From the IMG/VR virus record IMGVR_UViG_2671180674_000012, positions 1 through 22,748 of that record: 22,748 nt of DNA; one strand, given 5' to 3'. The stretch comes from a virus. Its lineage: Duplodnaviria > Heunggongvirae > Uroviricota > Caudoviricetes. Below, piece after piece: positions 13,869 through 22,748 of the stretch (position 1 is its first letter; each line of letters starts with the position of its first letter). The notes under the pieces were generated by a model. It saw only the letters and a list, made by a program, of their open reading frames with translations, had not been told where the DNA came from and searched no databases. The translations under genes were made by a program, and so were the position numbers.

Positions 13869-14206
13869 GAAGGAAACAAACAGAAACAACAATTGCCGTT
13901 ATCTGTTGCCACCAATGACAAGTAAACGTATCTCAGGCGAGCGCATTGCGCCGTTCTGACGCGGATACATTAGCCTGGGCAGAAGGTTCTGGCAATAAAA
14001 AATAGCGTTTTCTTATCGGTGTCGGTAAGATTGTTGCGGGTGCTTGAGGCTGTCTGCCTCGGGCATGCCACTGTAAGGCAGACAGAGAAAAGCCCCAGTT
14101 AACATCACGCGTCCTGCAAGACGCTTAACATTAATCTGAGGCTCAATCCATGCTGAACACATGTAGGTTAGCCTCTTACGTGCCGAAAGGCAAGGAGAAG
14201 CAGGCT

Positions 14207-14362
14207 ATGAAGCAGCAAAAGGCGATGTTAATCGCCCTGATCGTCATCTGTTTAACCGTCATAGTGACGGCACTGGTAACGAGGAAAGACCTCTGCGAGG
14301 TACGAATCCGAACCGGCCAGACGGAGGTCGCTGTCTTCACAGCTTACGAATCTGAGGAGTAA
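14207..14362 (+). CDS. hok: Hok/Gef-family type I toxin (HokD/RelF-like membrane peptide)
   Basis: Product MKQQKAMLIALIVICLTVIVTALVTRKDLCEVRIRTGQTEVAVFTAYESEE is near-identical to Hok/Gef peptides as I recall them; AAGGAG RBS; structured leader and own terminator. Confidence 0.8.
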   Translation: MKQQKAMLIALIVICLTVIVTALVTRKDLCEVRIRTGQTEVAVFTAYESEE

Positions 14363-15122: not shown

Positions 15123-16172
15123 GTGCGGGTATTACTTCGACCTGTTCTGGTACCGGAACTTGGGCTGGTTATCGTTAAGCCAGGCCGTGAATCCATGCAG
15201 GTATTCCATAACGGCAGGGTGCTGGTGGAGCCGGAACCGAAAAACATGCGCGGTCTGCCGTCCGGAGTCGTTCCTGCCGTTCGCCAGCCGCTGGCGGAAG
15301 ATAAAACATTGCTGCCGTTTTTCAGCGATGAGCGTGTGATTCGTGCTGCTGGCGGCGCTGGCGCACTGTCTGACTGGCTCCTGCGTCATGTTAAATCCTG
15401 CCAGTGGCCTCATGGAGACTATCACCACAGTGAAACCGTCATACATCGTTACGGTACCGGCGCAATGGTGTTGTGCTGGCACTGCGACAACCAGCTGCGC
15501 GACCAGACATCCGAATCACTCGGGCAGCTTGCTCAACAAAATCTGACCGCCTGGATGATTGACGTCATACGTCACGCAATAAGTGGTGCACAGGAACGGG
15601 AATTATCGCTGGCTGAATTATCCTGGTGGGCGCTCTGCAATCAGGTAGCGGACGCACTACCGGAGGCAGTATTACGTCGTTCTCTGGGGTTACGCGCGGA
15701 AAAAATCCACTCAGTATACCGCGAGAGTAACATCATACCGGGAGAACAGACAGCCACCAGCATACTGAAGCAGCGCACAAAAAATTTTGCGCCGTTGCCT
15801 CACGCCCACCAGCAACAGAACCCACCACAGGAAAAGACGGTTGTAAGTATCACAGTTGATCCGGAGTCACCGGAATCATTCATGAAGCGGCCTAAACGTC
15901 GCCGCTGGGTGAATGAGAAATACACGCGCTGGGTAAAGACACAGCCGTGTACGTGTTGTGGTAAGCCAGCAGACGATCCCCATCACCTGATTGGTCACGG
16001 TCAGGGCGGAATGGGGACAAAAGCCCACGATATTTTTACGTTGCCGCTGTGCCGGGAACATCACAACGAACTTCATGCAGATCCGCAGGCGTTCGAAGAA
16101 AAGCATGGTTCTCAGGTTGATTTAATTTTTCGTTTTCTTGATCACGCCTTTGCAACTGGCGTACTCGGATAA
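15123..16172 (+). CDS. DUF968-family prophage protein with C-terminal HNH-like zinc-binding motif
   Basis: C-terminal CTCCGKPADDPHHLIGHGQGGMGTKAHDIFTLPLCREHHNELH; sits upstream of rusA and Q as ydfU does in Qin-like prophages. Confidence 0.6.
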   Translation: MRVLLRPVLVPELGLVIVKPGRESMQVFHNGRVLVEPEPKNMRGLPSGVVPAVRQPLAEDKTLLPFFSDERVIRAAGGAGALSDWLLRHVKSCQWPHGDYHHSETVIHRYGTGAMVLCWHCDNQLRDQTSESLGQLAQQNLTAWMIDVIRHAISGAQERELSLAELSWWALCNQVADALPEAVLRRSLGLRAEKIHSVYRESNIIPGEQTATSILKQRTKNFAPLPHAHQQQNPPQEKTVVSITVDPESPESFMKRPKRRRWVNEKYTRWVKTQPCTCCGKPADDPHHLIGHGQGGMGTKAHDIFTLPLCREHHNELHADPQAFEEKHGSQVDLIFRFLDHAFATGVLG

Positions 16173-16184
16173 AAGAGGTTACTG

Positions 16185-16559
16185 ATGGGGATAGAATTTG
16201 TTTTGCCTTACCCGCCGACGGTAAACACCTACTGGCGACGCCGTGGCAGCACATATTTTATATCGGAAGCCGGTAAGCGTTATCGCCGTGATGTGGCACT
16301 TATAGTTCGCCAGCAGAGGCTGAAATTAAACCTGTCCGGAAGGCTGGCGATAACGGTTATTGCCGAGCCTCCGGATAAGCGCCGTCGTGATCTGGACAAT
16401 ATCCTGAAAGCGCCACTGGATGCACTGACACATGCGGGGTTGCTCATAGACGATGAGCAGTTTGATGAAATCAATATTGTGCGCGGTCAGCTCGTTCCTG
16501 GTGGGCGGCTGGGCGTGAAGATTTACGAAATAATGCATGACGGGCAGGTCCAAAAATGA
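16185..16559 (+). CDS. rusA: RusA-family Holliday junction resolvase
   Basis: LPYPPTVNTYWRRRG...PPDKRRRDLDNILKAPLDALTHAGLLIDDEQ matches the RusA signature; AGAGG RBS. Confidence 0.85.
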   Translation: MGIEFVLPYPPTVNTYWRRRGSTYFISEAGKRYRRDVALIVRQQRLKLNLSGRLAITVIAEPPDKRRRDLDNILKAPLDALTHAGLLIDDEQFDEINIVRGQLVPGGRLGVKIYEIMHDGQVQK

Positions 16560-17377
16560 AACTGGAAGATTTACCGAAATACTATTCCCCAAAATCGCCA
16601 GGCCTGACTGATGTATCCGCCTCGACGTCAAAAGATGCACTGAGTATCACTGATGTGATGGCTGCGCAGGGGATGACACAGAACCGGGCTGAGATGGGAT
16701 TTTCTGCGTTCCTGGGGAAAATGGGTATTAGTATGAATGACAGGGTGCGGGCAACAGAATTACTGACAGATTATGCATTAAGTCAGTGCGATCGTGTGGC
16801 GGCGTTAAGGAAACTTCCGGCAGAAATAAAACCGGCAGTGATGCGTATTATGGCTTCGTATGCTTTTGAGGATTATGCCCGCAGCGCAGCGAGTAAAAAG
16901 CAGTGCCCTTGTTGCCATGGGGAAAAATTTATTGAAAGCGAAGTTTTTACAAACAAGGTTCAGTATCCGGATGGTAAGCCGCCAGTATGGGCAAAGTGTA
17001 CAAAAGGCGTGTATCCGTCTTACTGGGAAGAATGGAAAAAAATCCGGGAGGTGGTGAAAGTTTCCTGTCCTGAATGTAAAGGGAAGGGGGAGATCTCCAC
17101 TGCCTGTAAAGACTGCCGTGGGCGTGGTGTTGCCATTCATCGTGAAGAGTCAGAAAAACGGGGTATGCCTGTTATCAGGGGCTGCCGGCGTTGTGGCGGT
17201 CGTGGCTATGAAAGACTGCCATCAACGGAGGCATTTAATGCCATATGCAAAGTGACGAGTGCTATCACGCTTGATACATGGAAAAAATCAGTGAAACGCT
17301 TTTACGATACGTTGGTGGTTCGGTTTGACATTGAAGAGGCATGGGCGGAGCGGCAGTTAAAGATGGTAACGCGATAG
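16556..17377 (+). CDS. Putative late antiterminator (Q-like) with four CxxCxGxG zinc-finger repeats
   Basis: ATGA overlap with rusA; CPCCHGEKF, CPECKGKG, CKDCRGRG, CRRCGGRG; positioned directly upstream of a promoter/terminator pair. Identity as Q is inferred from position. Confidence 0.55.
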   Translation: MKLEDLPKYYSPKSPGLTDVSASTSKDALSITDVMAAQGMTQNRAEMGFSAFLGKMGISMNDRVRATELLTDYALSQCDRVAALRKLPAEIKPAVMRIMASYAFEDYARSAASKKQCPCCHGEKFIESEVFTNKVQYPDGKPPVWAKCTKGVYPSYWEEWKKIREVVKVSCPECKGKGEISTACKDCRGRGVAIHREESEKRGMPVIRGCRRCGGRGYERLPSTEAFNAICKVTSAITLDTWKKSVKRFYDTLVVRFDIEEAWAERQLKMVTR

Positions 17378-17481: not shown

Positions 17482-17642
17482 GTTGTGATAGATAACAACT
17501 CCAGGTGGCATTCATTAGTGAATATTAGTTAATGTGTGCTGCCATGCGTTAAAAGATGTCAATTCGTTATTGACCGATATCAAATTATGGAAAGATGAAT
17601 TTCATTACTATTGAAAATCCGTTGTTTCAATAGGTGATATTT

Positions 17643-18359
17643 ATGCATAAACTAATTAAGCTGTTTTCATTTTTTATTGCACTATCGATATCTCAGTGTT
17701 ATGCCACTAGTAATGAATTCATAAGCGCCAGTAACAGTAGGGCATTTTCATTTTTTTTGCCTACAGGGCAAGCAATGGCTATCCAGTATCTTGATGGACT
17801 TAAAAGATATTCAGCGAGTGAGATTATAGACGATTTCAATAATAATGAATTGAGAGCAAAGAAAAAGTATAAAGATATATTCATCATAAACTCAACAGCG
17901 CGGGCGATTAAGCAAGACCTTGATGATAGGTTTTTTGTTCTGCTAAGGGATGGTAATAGTGGATTTGAATCGTTTTATGCTTACTATGATAAGAAATCAG
18001 AAGGTGACTTAGAGTTTCTTAACGAAGGTGATAATGTGGAGTTTATTTGCTCCAATGTTAAAAACATCATTATGCCAAGAGCGGAATGTTTTTCTATCGC
18101 TTTAAATCTTGAATCTAAAAATATTCAGGGAAACCCTATAAGATTTTTTGATAATGCTTATAAGTTGCAAAACACTTATAAGGCTACAAAAATAACATTT
18201 ATACTTTATTCTCTTCTGAAGGATAAAATTGAAAAGGACTGCGAAGAATCTATTGAAGCATGCAACCTGGCTGCCAGGAGGTTTACGGATAATGGCGCAT
18301 TACTTGACTCCATGCTTGAACCTTATGCGGATATGTTAAGTAAAATCGGTAACAATTAA
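17643..18359 (+). CDS. Secreted protein with Sec-type signal peptide and OB-fold (tRNA_anti-like) domain; AT-rich cargo
   Basis: AGGTGA RBS 5 nt before ATG; N-terminus MHKLIKLFSFFIALSISQCYA; central region resembles the tRNA_anti-like OB-fold pattern from memory; markedly AT-rich. Confidence 0.55.
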   Translation: MHKLIKLFSFFIALSISQCYATSNEFISASNSRAFSFFLPTGQAMAIQYLDGLKRYSASEIIDDFNNNELRAKKKYKDIFIINSTARAIKQDLDDRFFVLLRDGNSGFESFYAYYDKKSEGDLEFLNEGDNVEFICSNVKNIIMPRAECFSIALNLESKNIQGNPIRFFDNAYKLQNTYKATKITFILYSLLKDKIEKDCEESIEACNLAARRFTDNGALLDSMLEPYADMLSKIGNN

Positions 18360-18481
18360 CAAGGTTACATTCCAGGCATCCTGCCAGGGCTGCTTTTTTT
18401 ACCTCATTTACATCTATTGCTTGCTGGCTTTTTGGACAAGAGTTATTGGTATGTCACGTTAACCAGAAAAGGAAAAAAGAC

Positions 18482-18679
18482 ATGCTAAAACAGCAGGATA
18501 TGACCGAAACCGCCAGAGTGGTGTTTAATGAGTTAAGCGTCACCGAACCGGCGACCGTCGGGGAGATTGCACAGAATACTTACCTTTCACGCGAACGCTG
18601 CCAGTTAATACTGACCCAGCTTGTTATGGCGGGTCTGGCAGATTATCAGTTCGGTTGTTACAGACGCCTTTCGCAGTGA
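18482..18679 (+). CDS. Small HTH/winged-helix-like protein (65 aa), possible controller-type regulator
   Basis: ATG with AAAGGA RBS; TVGEIAQNTYLSRERCQLILTQLVMAGL is HTH-like; directly upstream of the methyltransferase. Confidence 0.45.
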   Translation: MLKQQDMTETARVVFNELSVTEPATVGEIAQNTYLSRERCQLILTQLVMAGLADYQFGCYRRLSQ

Positions 18680-18692
18680 AGGCTTTTTTATT
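18665..18692 (+). terminator. Putative terminator overlapping the HTH gene stop
   Basis: GCCTT-loop-AAGGC followed by TTTTTTATTT. Confidence 0.4.
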
Positions 18693-18829
18693 TGTGGTAA
18701 TGGGCGGCTGGTGGGTGTTAGCGGCACCTGCCAGCCATCTGCTCATGCGTTGGGGTCACAAGCAAACCTCAGGCCCATCTGCTTTGCGCAAAAGCGGAAT
18801 GAGCCTATCAGAGAAGTGCTTATTGATCT

Positions 18830-19876
18830 ATGATTAATACTGTAAAAATATCCAGTTGTGAGTTAATCAACGCTGATTGCCTGGAATTTATCCAGACCTT
18901 ACCGGAAAACTCTGTCGATCTGATAGTCACAGACCCGCCATACTTTAAAGTGAAGCCCGAGGGCTGGGATAACCAGTGGAAGGGCGACGCTGATTACCTG
19001 CAATGGCTGGACCAGTGTCTTGCGCAGTTTTGGCGGGTATTAAAACCCGCCGGAAGTCTTTACCTGTTCTGTGGTCATCGCCTGGCATCTGACACCGAAC
19101 TCATGATGCGTGAACGTTTTAATGTGCTGAACCACATTATCTGGGCGAAGCCGTCCGGACGCTGGAATGGGTGCAACAAGGAAAGCCTGCGGGCGTATTT
19201 CCCGGCAACAGAGCGCATTCTGTTTGCCGAACATTATCAGGGGCCATACCAGCCCAAAAGTGACGGTTATGCAGCAAAGGGGCGCGAGCTTAAGCAGCAT
19301 GTCATGGCCCCGCTGATTTCTTACTTTCGTGATGCGCGCGAATCACTGGGGATAACGTCAAAACAGATAGCAGAAGCCACCGGAAAGAAAAACATGGCTT
19401 CGCACTGGTTTGGTACCAGTCAGTGGCAGTTACCGAATGAGGCCGATTACAGTAAACTGCAGGCGCTGTTTGCACGTGTGGCGGCAGAAAAACACCAGCG
19501 CGGTGAACTGGAGCAGCCACACCACCAGCTGGTCAGCACATACAGCGAACTGAACCGGCAATATGCCAGCCTGCTGGAGGAATACAAATCACTGCGGCGT
19601 TATTTTTCCGTATCGGCTGTCGTTCCTTATACGGATGTCTGGACGCACAAGCCCGTGCAGTATTATCCGGGTAAGCATCCCTGTGAAAAACCGGCGGATA
19701 TGTTGCGTCAGATAATTACTGCCAGCAGCCGTCCAGGCGATTTGGTCGCAGATTTTTTTATGGGGTCGGGGTCGACAATAAAAGCGGCACTGTCGCTGGG
19801 ACGCAGGGCGATTGGCGTGGAACTGGAAGAGGAACGTTTTAATCAGACGGTCAGAGAAATAACGAAAGATTTTTAA
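18830..19876 (+). CDS. DNA methyltransferase, N6-adenine/N4-cytosine type, beta-class motif order
   Basis: DPPY catalytic motif near the N-terminus (LIVTDPPYF) and AdoMet motif FFMGSGST near the C-terminus; 348 aa. Confidence 0.85.
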   Translation: MINTVKISSCELINADCLEFIQTLPENSVDLIVTDPPYFKVKPEGWDNQWKGDADYLQWLDQCLAQFWRVLKPAGSLYLFCGHRLASDTELMMRERFNVLNHIIWAKPSGRWNGCNKESLRAYFPATERILFAEHYQGPYQPKSDGYAAKGRELKQHVMAPLISYFRDARESLGITSKQIAEATGKKNMASHWFGTSQWQLPNEADYSKLQALFARVAAEKHQRGELEQPHHQLVSTYSELNRQYASLLEEYKSLRRYFSVSAVVPYTDVWTHKPVQYYPGKHPCEKPADMLRQIITASSRPGDLVADFFMGSGSTIKAALSLGRRAIGVELEEERFNQTVREITKDF

Positions 19877-19984
19877 TTCAGTGATGATATAAGTTGTATA
19901 TTTCTGATACAGATGTATACACATATTTAAAACTGAACACCAAATATATTTTTGATGCCCACACAATCATTGTTAGTATTTGTG

Positions 19985-20008
19985 ACGACCTGAAGGTGGT
20001 CGTTTTGT
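19985..20008 (+). terminator. Putative terminator after the methyltransferase
   Basis: ACGACC/GGTCGT stem with 7-nt loop followed by a T-rich tract. Confidence 0.4.
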
Positions 20009-20433
20009 GTTCACAGGGTGTTAATACCACCGGAAAGGTCAGTGCTGACTTCCTGGTGATCAGTTTGTTGATTCAGTAATAACCGGTCAGCAGTGTGATT
20101 CCGGAAGTCAGCATTTTATGTGTGAGGGTAATTTCTGCTACCCGCACTGGTAAACAAATGAGGCATATCGTTTCAGCACTGGCGAGTTTCGCGGAGAACA
20201 GGTTTTGCAAGCGCCTTTGTCGTTCTTCATTCTGTAATATCTGACTGATTACAGTTTCGGTGCTGTTTTTTACATTGTTAACGTTGTGTATCATCGGATG
20301 GTTTTTATCAGAATGAGTCGCTGCCTGTTTCGGGGTCTGTGATTCGTCAGAATTACGTTGCAGGCTGACGAATCATTCTGGTAGTAACCATACAATTAAA
20401 CGCTGTCTAATTCTTATACGATGAATGCTTTGG

Positions 20434-20459
20434 GCCCGTCTCATGACGGGCATTTTTTT
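20434..20459 (+). terminator. Rho-independent terminator closing the repeat-rich noncoding segment
   Basis: GCCCGTC-TCAT-GACGGGC followed by ATTTTTTT. Confidence 0.5.
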
Positions 20460-20556
20460 ATCCGTGCGCAATGCCTGTTCTGTTATGGCATTTTTCATCT
20501 TTTCCCGGTTGGCTATTATTATGTTTTATTTTTCTGTATACAGGAGAATTGAGACT

Positions 20557-21048
20557 GTGATCACATATGCAGACATTCGGGCAAAGCAGGCTGAAATTCA
20601 GGAGGCCAGACAGGAGTACATCCAGCGACTGCGGGATATGGCAAAAAGGCTGGTCAAGACCTATGAAGACTCACTGGCATTGCCGAAACCACGATGGCTG
20701 GATATTGAGGGTAACTCCCATCCCTATGTTTATCTTTCTCATGATAGTTGTTGTGAGAAACCGGAGGATTTGCAGGTAGATTTTCAGGATGGGGTTACTT
20801 TTAATTTATATACGGTTGTTGATGATGATCCCCGCCAGTCTGTAAGTGTGAATATTACAGTGAGTATTCTGTTACTTGATGGCGACAACATGACGATTTC
20901 GGTTGATGGTTATCAGGCCAGGACATTTTCGCATGTGGATACCAACGCAAAAATTAATGAAGTGTGCGAATACATTAAAGACAGCATACTTATGTCAATG
21001 AATGAAGTGACGTTTGGCAAAAAATCCCTTTCAGAAGTGAAAGGGTAA
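20557..21048 (+). CDS. Hypothetical protein (163 aa)
   Basis: GTG start with AGGAG 10 nt upstream (the ORF-track start at 20425 lies inside the terminator and has a hydrophobic junk-like N-terminus); followed by its own terminator. Confidence 0.5.
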   Translation: MITYADIRAKQAEIQEARQEYIQRLRDMAKRLVKTYEDSLALPKPRWLDIEGNSHPYVYLSHDSCCEKPEDLQVDFQDGVTFNLYTVVDDDPRQSVSVNITVSILLLDGDNMTISVDGYQARTFSHVDTNAKINEVCEYIKDSILMSMNEVTFGKKSLSEVKG

Positions 21049-21083
21049 ACCAGCTGACACTCCGCTGATTCAGAAAATTATCA

Positions 21084-21108
21084 GGCTGCGCACGTGCGTG
21101 GCCTTTTT
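21084..21108 (+). terminator. Putative terminator after the 163-aa gene
   Basis: Imperfect stem GGCTGCG/CGTGGCC around the palindrome CGCACGTGCG, followed by TTTTT. Confidence 0.4.
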
Positions 21109-21245
21109 CATATCTGCGCCACGCCCGGCGCACATCAAAAAACCACAGAGCCTTTCAGGGGGGAGCTTACGGGATGGTCAGTGTGACTTTCTCTGTGGGC
21201 TGCTCATCCCGGGGCGAGGCTCACCCACTAAAAGGAAAAGTCACG

Positions 21246-21671
21246 ATGTTTGGTATTTTCAAAAAGAAAACCCGTAAGGCTATTACTGAAGTGAAGAAAA
21301 TGGAGAACCGCGACGCGGTGGAGGCGACCGTCTGGGGCGCGTATTCCATTGCATACGCTGACGACACCTGTGACGCGAAAGAAATTGCGGTACTGGAGAA
21401 AACCATTGCAGCACTTCCTGCCTTTGCGCCGTTCTCCGGTGAGATTGCCCAGATGAGCGCGAATATCCGCGCCCGTTATGAAGCATCGCCGCGTTCTGCC
21501 AATGCTGAAGCCCTCCGTCAACTGGCTGATGTCGCCGGTACTGATGATGCCGTTAATGTGCTGTGCCTGTGTCTGGATATCGCAGACCAGGATGGCATTG
21601 GTCCGGATGAAGAAGCACAGCTCAAGAAAATTGCTCAGGCGCTGCAGTTACCGCTGGAGCAGTACCTGTGA
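21246..21671 (+). CDS. TerB-like (tellurite-resistance TerB family) protein
   Basis: 141-aa product with AAGGA RBS; helical, acidic composition and motifs (EIAVLEKTIAALP, VNVLCLCLDIADQDGIGPDEEAQLKKIAQAL) resemble the TerB fold from memory. Confidence 0.6.
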   Translation: MFGIFKKKTRKAITEVKKMENRDAVEATVWGAYSIAYADDTCDAKEIAVLEKTIAALPAFAPFSGEIAQMSANIRARYEASPRSANAEALRQLADVAGTDDAVNVLCLCLDIADQDGIGPDEEAQLKKIAQALQLPLEQYL

Positions 21672-21826
21672 AAAGCGCACGCCTTGCGCTGGCTGCCGTC
21701 CTGCTGTTTCTGGTAGTGGCGGTGGATTTCACCGGACGGCTGATGTCGGTACTGGCTGATGGTGTACTGGTGGCGATGGCGCTGGTCGTGCTCCGGCCTT
21801 TATTCCGGAACAAAAACAACAGCTGA
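21668..21826 (+). CDS. 52-aa hydrophobic peptide, start overlapping the TerB-like stop
   Basis: GTG at 21668 overlaps TGA at 21669-21671; product VKSARLALAAVLLFLVVAVDFTGRLMSVLADGVLVAMALVVLRPLFRNKNNS has two hydrophobic segments. Absent from the ORF track because it is under 60 aa. Confidence 0.35.
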   Translation: MKSARLALAAVLLFLVVAVDFTGRLMSVLADGVLVAMALVVLRPLFRNKNNS

Positions 21827-21834
21827 TTATTTGA

Positions 21835-21862
21835 GCGGGCATTGAAAGCCCGCTGCATTTTT
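21835..21862 (+). terminator. Terminator between convergent genes
   Basis: GCGGGC-ATTGAAA-GCCCGC followed by TGCATTTTTA; overlaps the stop codon of the minus-strand DUF4145 gene. Confidence 0.45.
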
Positions 21863-22541
21863 ATTGCTGCTGTTCCTTAATGCGTTCCGGTAGCACAAAT
21901 GCCACTTCAAGGAACAGGCGGAGAAACGCCACAAACTCTTTTGCCTGTTCACCACTGGCCTCGAGCTCGTGCACAGCCTCATTGCCTTCCATACGGATTC
22001 GGTGAGCCCAGTTTCTCATTGATTCCGTCAGTATGCCGTCCTGCCGTGCCAGTTCAATGCGTGACAGCAGATTGCCTTTTTCGTACCCCAGGGCACGGAG
22101 GGCAACCTCGAGGACGCTACGGCAGCCAACAATGATACGCGGGGCGGTTCTGCCGGACCGAACATCCTCCTGCAACTCGGTGAAGACTGCGCGAATTTTT
22201 TCGGGATAGTGGGGGGAGTCATCGGGCAGCCTGAGTTCAGGATAGATTTTGATGCTTCCCTCAAGTGGAGCATTCAGCACCCAGGCTTTGTTGTTGATGG
22301 CTTTTTTCATGTCCACCAGTTCACTGACTGAACATTCGAATGCGATCATTAATGGGTTGTTACATTCTGTGCAAAAGTCTGTTGAGTATGCTTTTGCTGA
22401 TGTTATTTCAGAGGTGCGCGGCTGTTGCACGTAAAGCTTGTTTTCTGTAGCCGGGCGCCTGCTGTGGTACTGGGTGACCTCATTCAGAGAAATATGAACC
22501 TGATGAAGGCAGTACGGGCATCTAATTTTCAGGGAGTACAT
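21861..22541 (-). CDS. Zinc-ribbon plus DUF4145-domain protein
   Basis: ATG at 22541 with AAGAGG upstream; N-terminus MYSLKIRCPYC...CTECNNP; C-terminus matches my recollection of DUF4145 (RSVLEVALRALG...NWAHRIRMEGNEAVHE...FVLPERI). The ORF-track extension to 22730 lacks an RBS. Confidence 0.6.
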   Translation of the reverse strand: MYSLKIRCPYCLHQVHISLNEVTQYHSRRPATENKLYVQQPRTSEITSAKAYSTDFCTECNNPLMIAFECSVSELVDMKKAINNKAWVLNAPLEGSIKIYPELRLPDDSPHYPEKIRAVFTELQEDVRSGRTAPRIIVGCRSVLEVALRALGYEKGNLLSRIELARQDGILTESMRNWAHRIRMEGNEAVHELEASGEQAKEFVAFLRLFLEVAFVLPERIKEQQQ

Positions 22542-22748
22542 ATGACCTCTTCGACAGAAGTGATAACTGAATTTGAAAATTGCATAGCAGATTCTGCCAT
22601 TGATTCTGTAGCAGCGATAGAACGAAGGTTTGCTGCTGCTCAGACCCGGTATGGTCATGATGCAGCCGTCAAAGGGCTGGCAATGGCGTTTGTTATTGCG
22701 GAGAACCGCCGTCGCTTTATTGAAGCGCAAATGACACTAAAGCAATAA
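22542..22748 (+). CDS. Small hypothetical protein (68 aa), divergent from the DUF4145 gene
   Basis: ATG 22542 with AGGGAG SD at 5-nt spacing; product MTSSTEVITEFENCIADSAIDSVAAIERRF... ; the window ends at its stop codon. Confidence 0.5.
   Translation: MTSSTEVITEFENCIADSAIDSVAAIERRFAAAQTRYGHDAAVKGLAMAFVIAENRRRFIEAQMTLKQ

Follow-up and report, generated by a model that had tools for sequence, protein, structure and literature searches.

In lambda, the late genes are transcribed after induction by Q-modified polymerase, which reads through terminators. The closest described relatives of the gene that we discuss here are the phage morons (Juhala et al. 2000; Cumby et al. 2012), for example bor and lom of lambda and gp15 of HK97 (summarised in PMC8065619; bioRxiv 10.1101/2024.10.15.618418), and the late region typically harbours morons with a promoter and a terminator of their own (PMC8065619). 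[quoted passage not shown] Another relevant site is the old/tin locus of P2, between gpA and gpQ, an anti-phage hotspot that has been validated by experiment (Rousset et al. 2022, PMC9122126).

The stretch of DNA that we analysed (the window, 22,748 nucleotides) is a lambdoid prophage of E. coli. Our subject is one ORF within it, which we call gene X, and its setting is as follows:

14038-14212: sok antitoxin RNA (Rfam RF01794, 114 bits), a hok/sok-type locus in the early-right region of the prophage
15123-16172: DUF968
16556-17377: antiterminator gene Q
17634-18359: low-GC ORF directly after Q (241 aa; GC 30-35%)
18830-19876: N6/N4 DNA methyltransferase gene
20073-20294, minus strand: 73-aa ORF with no family match
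20557-21048, plus strand: gene X, with GTG start at 20557-20559, TAA at 21046-21048, and 163 codons
21246-21671: TerB
21668-21826: DUF3927 membrane peptide (52 aa), whose GTG start overlaps the TerB stop as GTGA
21834-21854: terminator shared by the TerB-DUF3927 pair
21861-22730, minus strand: 289-aa ORF with a C-terminal DUF4145 domain (E 3.6e-11)

Several of these neighbours deserve a comment of their own. The ORF directly after Q has a sub-threshold, tRNA_anti-like OB-fold match (E 3.8e-4), and it is probably another independently acquired cargo gene. The GTGA overlap suggests that TerB and DUF3927 are translationally coupled. Holins come next in both near-identical and diverged E. coli prophages, and in the window the DUF4145 ORF is inserted antisense between DUF3927 and the place where they are expected. 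This ORF also weakly matches PD-T7-4, a single-gene defence model of PADLOC (E 0.0011), and strain 08-00022 has a DUF4145 gene at the same site. An Rfam scan of the whole window found nothing but sok, far upstream of gene X, and a tRNA search of the window found none. Most relatives of gene X have a tRNA cluster (Ile/Met, Arg, Thr, Gly) between the methyltransferase and gene X, while the window and EC11-type loci have about 600 nt instead, with no tRNA in 19877-20486.

We think that gene X belongs with the morons. In our preferred reading, to which we assign a probability of about 0.6, it is a self-contained moron cassette in the Q-to-lysis slot; its soluble product would most probably be a stoichiometric binder that serves as a non-essential conversion or phage-competition factor and does not depend on the neighbouring genes. 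The kind of element is known, even though the protein family itself is uncharacterised. Like the described morons, gene X is a single accessory gene of the late region that some genomes have and otherwise collinear ones lack. It runs in the same direction as the late genes, is followed by an intrinsic terminator of its own, and has a GC content unlike that of the genes around it. Unlike the described morons, it encodes a soluble cytoplasmic protein, whereas the known morons are mostly envelope or membrane proteins, and its promoter is only putative. There is also a likeness to the stxAB cassette, which occupies the same slot and has the same expected Q-dependent read-through from pR'; relatives of gene X follow a tRNA cluster, as stx does. 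On the other hand, gene X is a single gene with no signal peptide, its product is not a toxin, and it has no sequence or fold relation to Stx. The initial annotation had placed gene X in a cargo island, and this agrees with its position in the Q-to-lysis interval.

Gene X is, by its pattern of substitutions, a real gene under purifying selection. Relative to orthologs that are about 74% identical, its dN/dS is 0.14-0.19 and the differences fall on the three codon positions at roughly 27:26:67; the 69 nt upstream show no codon-position pattern like that of the ORF. (We left out the dN/dS value from locus L017, which was an alignment-offset artefact.) Where translation starts is less obvious, and two features matter here:

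20521-20523, plus strand: alternative in-frame ATG, 12 codons upstream of the GTG and conserved in the family, which would yield a 175-aa isoform
20542-20546, plus strand: Shine-Dalgarno sequence AGGAG, 10 nt before the GTG

The predicted anti-Shine-Dalgarno duplex at the GTG has an energy of -7.4 kcal/mol, which is in the top 5% of background 15-mers, as against only -3.6 kcal/mol, or background level, at the ATG at 20521. We therefore take the GTG at 20557 and the 163-aa protein as the best call in the window, with the 175-aa isoform as a possible second product. This call agrees with the initial annotation in its coordinates, its GTG start, and its AGGAG ribosome binding site. That the ORF is coding is further supported by a match to PHROG 5091 that begins at the first residue of the protein (see below). 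The ORF stays open mechanically as far back as an ATG at 20425 (207 aa), and in E. coli EC11, whose locus is 99.6% identical, the PGAP/RefSeq call for the ortholog is 201 aa (L001 12044-12649, which corresponds to 20443-21048 of the window). We considered a membrane-anchored form of 201 or 207 aa and rejected it: the ATG of the 201-aa call falls within the stem of the upstream intrinsic terminator, outside of the conserved cassette, and no homology with diverged loci is seen before 20487, so we regard these forms as artefacts. The N-terminus of the EC11 ortholog is probably mis-annotated in RefSeq/PGAP.

The edges of the cassette are well defined and are marked by the following:

20434-20459, plus strand: upstream intrinsic terminator, stem-loop 20434-20451 plus T7 (-14.9 kcal/mol, z -4.85)
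20470-20492, plus strand: weak hairpin whose tail is the left boundary repeat (-6.4 kcal/mol, z -1.2)
20487-20499, plus strand: left copy of the cassette-boundary repeat GGC(A/C)TTTTTCAT, with homology to the filled locus L002 starting at 20487
21083-21109, plus strand: downstream intrinsic terminator of the cassette, hairpin 21083-21104 plus T5 (-14.9 kcal/mol, z -4.05)
21100-21112, plus strand: right copy of the boundary repeat GGC(A/C)TTTTTCAT, which overlaps the downstream terminator, with homology to the empty site beginning at 21100

That gene X is bracketed by terminators had been noticed in the initial annotation, and both a terminator scan and folding confirmed it: for each of the two, none of 200 shuffles folds as well. 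The scan, which includes both of them, found 15 terminator-like sites in 17500-22748, as compared to 5.2 +/- 2.4 in shuffled sequences. The upstream terminator lies outside of the region that is homologous to diverged loci with gene X, which starts at 20487. From what is known of lambda, it would insulate the cassette from upstream transcription unless the polymerase were Q-modified. The downstream terminator marks the start of the conserved leader of TerB.

An empty site and a filled site can be compared directly. Locus L023 (NZ_CP028192) has the order methyltransferase, tRNA-Ile, tRNA-Arg, 175 nt, TerB, DUF3927, and holins, with no gene X. In locus L002, gene X lies between tRNA-Arg and TerB, and both flanks are 98% identical to the empty site. 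The alignments of the two flanks have 31 nt of the empty site in common (CCAGGCTCGCTTCGGCGGGCCTTTTTCATAT), which is a hairpin plus a T-run, so the cassette sits between two imperfect copies of one terminator hairpin and T-run; the hairpin at this site reads GGCC-T5-CATATCCGCGCC. The cassette is about 0.6 kb, and its GC content is 41-45%, as compared to 50-57% for its neighbours (50-54% for the methyltransferase and 53-57% for TerB). Because it is present or absent between prophages that are otherwise collinear, as in the comparison of L023 with L002, gene X is dispensable. The right-hand terminator and the TerB leader are also present in about 40 E. coli genomes that lack gene X. In 42 of 54 E. 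coli records only a short stretch was matched (among the matches listed, query 683-751, which is 21082-21150 of the window), and all of these records lack gene X. Where gene X is present, a hairpin and T-run follow its stop codon at all 13 of the loci that we examined, each from a different lineage, and in 12 of these the hairpin is within 45 nt of the stop.

The position of gene X had led to the suggestion that it might be an effector or partner of the upstream methyltransferase. In its strongest form, gene X would encode a nuclease or toxin that is paired with the N6/N4 DNA methyltransferase, in the manner of a restriction-modification system or of a toxin and its immunity protein. Nothing but proximity to the gene at 18830-19876 speaks for this, and the comparison across loci that had been proposed as a check gave an inconsistent association: among the 17 lambdoid loci with enough upstream sequence, an intact methyltransferase accompanies gene X in only 7. 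Furthermore, tRNA clusters usually separate the two genes, L023 keeps the methyltransferase, the tRNAs, and TerB without gene X while being otherwise collinear, and the X protein has no conserved catalytic motif on a fold like that of a restriction endonuclease. At the level of comparative genomics we consider the pairing to be already refuted, and we give it almost no credence.

It had also been suggested that gene X might be a partner of the TerB module, and this proposal needs more discussion. Gene X could then be, for example, a regulator or a third component. TerB-DUF3927 lies directly downstream of gene X in 18 of 19 lambdoid loci of the window's subfamily, and the same adjacency is seen in phage CharmingMan, despite the fact that its X protein is only 29% identical to that of the window. 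Against this, a strong terminator lies between gene X and TerB, followed by the conserved and apparently structured TerB leader of about 140 nt. The distributions are also quite different. The TerB module is found in at least 332 of 5,426 complete E. coli genomes, as against about 12 for gene X, which makes it roughly 30-fold commoner, and 171 of the 399 places where the TerB-DUF3927 pair occurs are on plasmids. Nor do the two diverge together: the TerB of the window is 88% identical to that of CharmingMan, where the X proteins are 29% identical, and 98% identical to that of L002, where the X proteins are 70% identical. Different alleles of gene X have thus replaced one another at a single position, with a conserved TerB block downstream of it. 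Finally, gene X often occurs without TerB, both at L017, L020, L021/22, L066, L067-70, L071, L072, L073, L074, and L076 and at L004 and 39 other P2-type loci. Judging from these comparisons, the adjacency is positional, and a partnership is largely refuted by the distribution; we view it as very unlikely, although the adjacency in 18 of 19 loci leaves some room for a loose functional link in this subfamily. That gene X functions independently of both the methyltransferase and the TerB-DUF3927 pair is part of the reading that we prefer, and we hold it with the same confidence.

The TerB leader (21105-21248) is highly conserved, even relative to phage CharmingMan. A long-range structure is predicted for it (consensus -45.7 kcal/mol), in which the 3' arm is paired with the Shine-Dalgarno region of TerB (CTAAAAGG). 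Only one compensatory pair was seen, amid too little variation for a test of covariation.

Outside of its immediate relatives, gene X belongs to a wider family. The X protein matches the profile phrog_5091 (PHROG 5091, to which no function is assigned) at E 9e-42, with residues 1-154 aligned to profile positions 2-161 of 164, and a Klebsiella-type relative matches this profile as well. An exhaustive profile search gave 108 representatives at E <= 1e-3, which are nearly all single-domain proteins of 155-180 aa, and the family comprises about 100 clusters. As judged from these sequences, all members belong to temperate phages of Enterobacterales. The named ones come from Escherichia, Salmonella, Citrobacter, Serratia, Klebsiella, Phytobacter, and Xenorhabdus, and every one is annotated as "hypothetical". 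We found no characterised homolog; the literature yielded nothing on PHROG 5091 and only an incidental mention of DUF3927. Relatives in deposited phages were found by tblastn alone, at 27-29% identity, while megablast against those phages gave no match, and a scan of contigs from one genome per species found no relatives. The alignment of the diverse family is too variable for pattern-based searches for loci.

In all 12 lineages that we sampled, the genomic context is a phage, and the slots are as follows:

antiterminator-to-holin interval: 6 of 12 lineages
after the lysis genes or just before terminase: 3 of 12 lineages
P2 gpA-gpQ locus: 1 of 12 lineages, with at least 40 P2-like genomes, where it is in a constant block beside the portal gene
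within the tail operons of myoviruses: 2 of 12 lineages

Relatives of gene X occur in several unlike phage slots that contain neither the methyltransferase nor TerB. The initial annotation had raised the counter-possibility of a common phage protein, structural or lysis-accessory, unrelated to its neighbours, and this is essentially what we see as far as an accessory gene of many phages is concerned; the structural part did not stand, and the protein does not correspond to any known lysis protein either.

Two of these slots can be described further. In the old/tin hotspot, a 27%-identical relative is present in at least 40 P2-like genomes (L004 5998-6537; L025-L063). Between its end and the stop of gpQ, the portal gene that converges on it, there are 15 nt. 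The block to which it belongs (a small exported protein, a 42-aa ORF, and X) is constant and lies at the edge of the variable gpA-gpQ hotspot. In this respect it is unlike the variable cargo of the hotspot, and no PADLOC model matches it. The relatives in Xenorhabdus (L071 6001-6498) and Serratia (L072 4001-4486) lie inside myovirus tail gene clusters: the former is flanked by the tube region and a probable tape-measure gene, the latter by a baseplate-V-like gene and the sheath gene. Both still have their own terminator-like hairpin after the gene.

A second start codon recurs across the family. Among 96 representatives, the called start is at M-x-(I/V)-T-Y in 51, at 10-14 residues upstream of this in 39, and elsewhere in 6, and 34 of the 39 upstream starts are at exactly 12-13 residues. 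In most lineages whose DNA we examined, the reading frame continues without a stop to an in-frame upstream ATG, which is often preceded by a Shine-Dalgarno sequence; the loci concerned are L020, L021, L066, L067, L071, L072, L074, and L076. The N-terminal extension shows sequence conservation within sub-families (MLIRN....MEKAM|SITY). This conserved dual start may produce two isoforms.

How would such a cassette be expressed? The cassette consists of a ribosome binding site, the 163-aa ORF, and its own intrinsic terminator. In our reading, it entered a lambdoid prophage at a terminator hairpin, in the cargo interval that separates the late antiterminator gene Q from the lysis genes. By analogy to lambda, gene X should be transcribed with the late operon after induction, when Q-modified polymerase would read through the flanking terminators, as for stx. 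Some transcription in the lysogen may come, in addition, from a weak putative promoter of its own:

20492-20519, plus strand: promoter-like site TTTTCA, 16-nt spacer, TATTAT (9 of 12 matches, with such sites at chance frequency in the region)

The TATTAT hexamer is invariant in six diverged loci, but it adjoins the conserved upstream ATG, which confounds any explanation of why the hexamer is conserved. We rejected an argument for a promoter from this conservation alone.

It is also conceivable that gene X is expressed solely from the Q-dependent late transcript, as an accessory of the lytic cycle that would help the phage itself, for example in the timing of lysis, in late counter-defence, or as a packaged or injected protein. 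The fact that gene X directly follows the antiterminator gene in several lineages, or lies inside tail operons, would fit with this. Nevertheless, we think that this is unlikely, while still a possibility to be taken seriously. The presence or absence of the gene between otherwise collinear prophages implies that it is dispensable. In addition, a private terminator in 13 of 13 lineages is what we would expect if transcription of the cassette in the lysogen must stop before the lysis genes, and so it is indirect support for such transcription. And the P2-type copy lies in the old/tin exclusion hotspot, where it converges on the portal gene. We continue to prefer the moron reading, in which late read-through may be supplemented by transcription in the lysogen.

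As to what the protein does, its composition and predicted structure give some hints. The X protein has 163 aa (18.6 kDa), is acidic (pI 4.77), and has no hydrophobic or transmembrane segment, from which we expect it to be soluble. The earlier statement that it has no recognisable domain was correct, as no Pfam, NCBIfam, PADLOC, or PDB-sequence family matches it: neither searches with the protein and 62 family members against Pfam, NCBIfam, and PADLOC (PADLOC-DB v2) nor comparisons of two alignments of the family to PDB sequence profiles gave anything above noise. An AlphaFold model based on an alignment of 62 sequences is confident (pLDDT 91.9, pTM 0.83) and has a helix (4-39), an antiparallel sheet (46-124), a second helix (130-149), and a disordered tail; the topology was unchanged with a shallower alignment. 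A Foldseek search of BFVD with this model gave no match at E <= 0.001.

The near-invariant residues of the family are Y36, S39, L40, L42, W47, G52, Y57, T86, D90, and K141, which lie within the motifs Y..SL.LP...W.D..G...PYV, TV.DD.PR, and EVC..IKD. We found no nuclease motif or fold in either the sequence or the predicted structure. The initial annotation had already seen no canonical nuclease motif, and the nearest match that it mentioned, SHDSCCEK, lies in the most variable segment of the family alignment. The structure prediction and fold comparison that it had called for thus gave a confident model with no nuclease fold.

The closest solved folds are the FP dimerisation domain of PI31/Fbxo7, the subunits of actin-capping protein, and the C-terminal domain of Mediator Med17. 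In all of these, as in the model, an antiparallel sheet has one of its faces packed against two helices, one N-terminal and the other, a long one, C-terminal, and all are non-enzymatic modules for protein binding or dimerisation. From the predicted fold and the composition, we infer that the X protein acts by binding rather than by catalysis. The product would be a soluble, acidic helix-sheet-helix protein with neither a catalytic motif nor an enzyme fold, and it would most probably act stoichiometrically, by binding another protein or by dimerising.

We also considered whether the X protein is a class I chaperone of type III secretion (CesT/SicP-like) or some other virulence-associated adaptor. 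Fold scores for such chaperones are in the non-specific range, below the matches to the FP domain and to capping protein. No effector gene adjoins gene X, and the family is found in cargo slots of P2-like phages and of prophages from Klebsiella, Serratia, and Phytobacter. With no confident fold match and no adjacent effector gene, we rejected the chaperone identity, and the broader adaptor reading strikes us as extremely improbable.

Our impression, then, is that gene X is a non-essential factor in lysogenic conversion or in competition between phages. The benefit might lie in excluding other phages, in counter-defence, or in modulating the host. A more specific proposal would be that PHROG 5091 is a single-gene phage-competition factor (for defence or counter-defence) whose fold lacks a close relative among solved structures; that it is made as two isoforms, with the choice between them perhaps depending on the promoter (its own promoter in the lysogen versus Q-dependent read-through); and that the cassette moves from one phage cargo slot to another by recombination at terminator hairpins. 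We offer this as speculation that is rather doubtful as a whole. On present evidence, the X protein remains a hypothetical accessory protein.

Even so, the locus is informative in several ways. Gene X should not be read as part of a restriction or toxin system linked to the methyltransferase, nor should it be assigned to the TerB module. The stx-equivalent slot of this prophage has several independent cargo cassettes stacked in it, and gene X is one of them. It is also a clean example of how morons are bounded, with duplicated terminator hairpins and with matching empty and filled sites. And it represents an uncharacterised, phage-restricted family whose fold is predicted with confidence and whose second start codon is conserved, which is unusual. 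Should the family turn out to act in exclusion or counter-defence, it would add a small and easily testable single-gene system.
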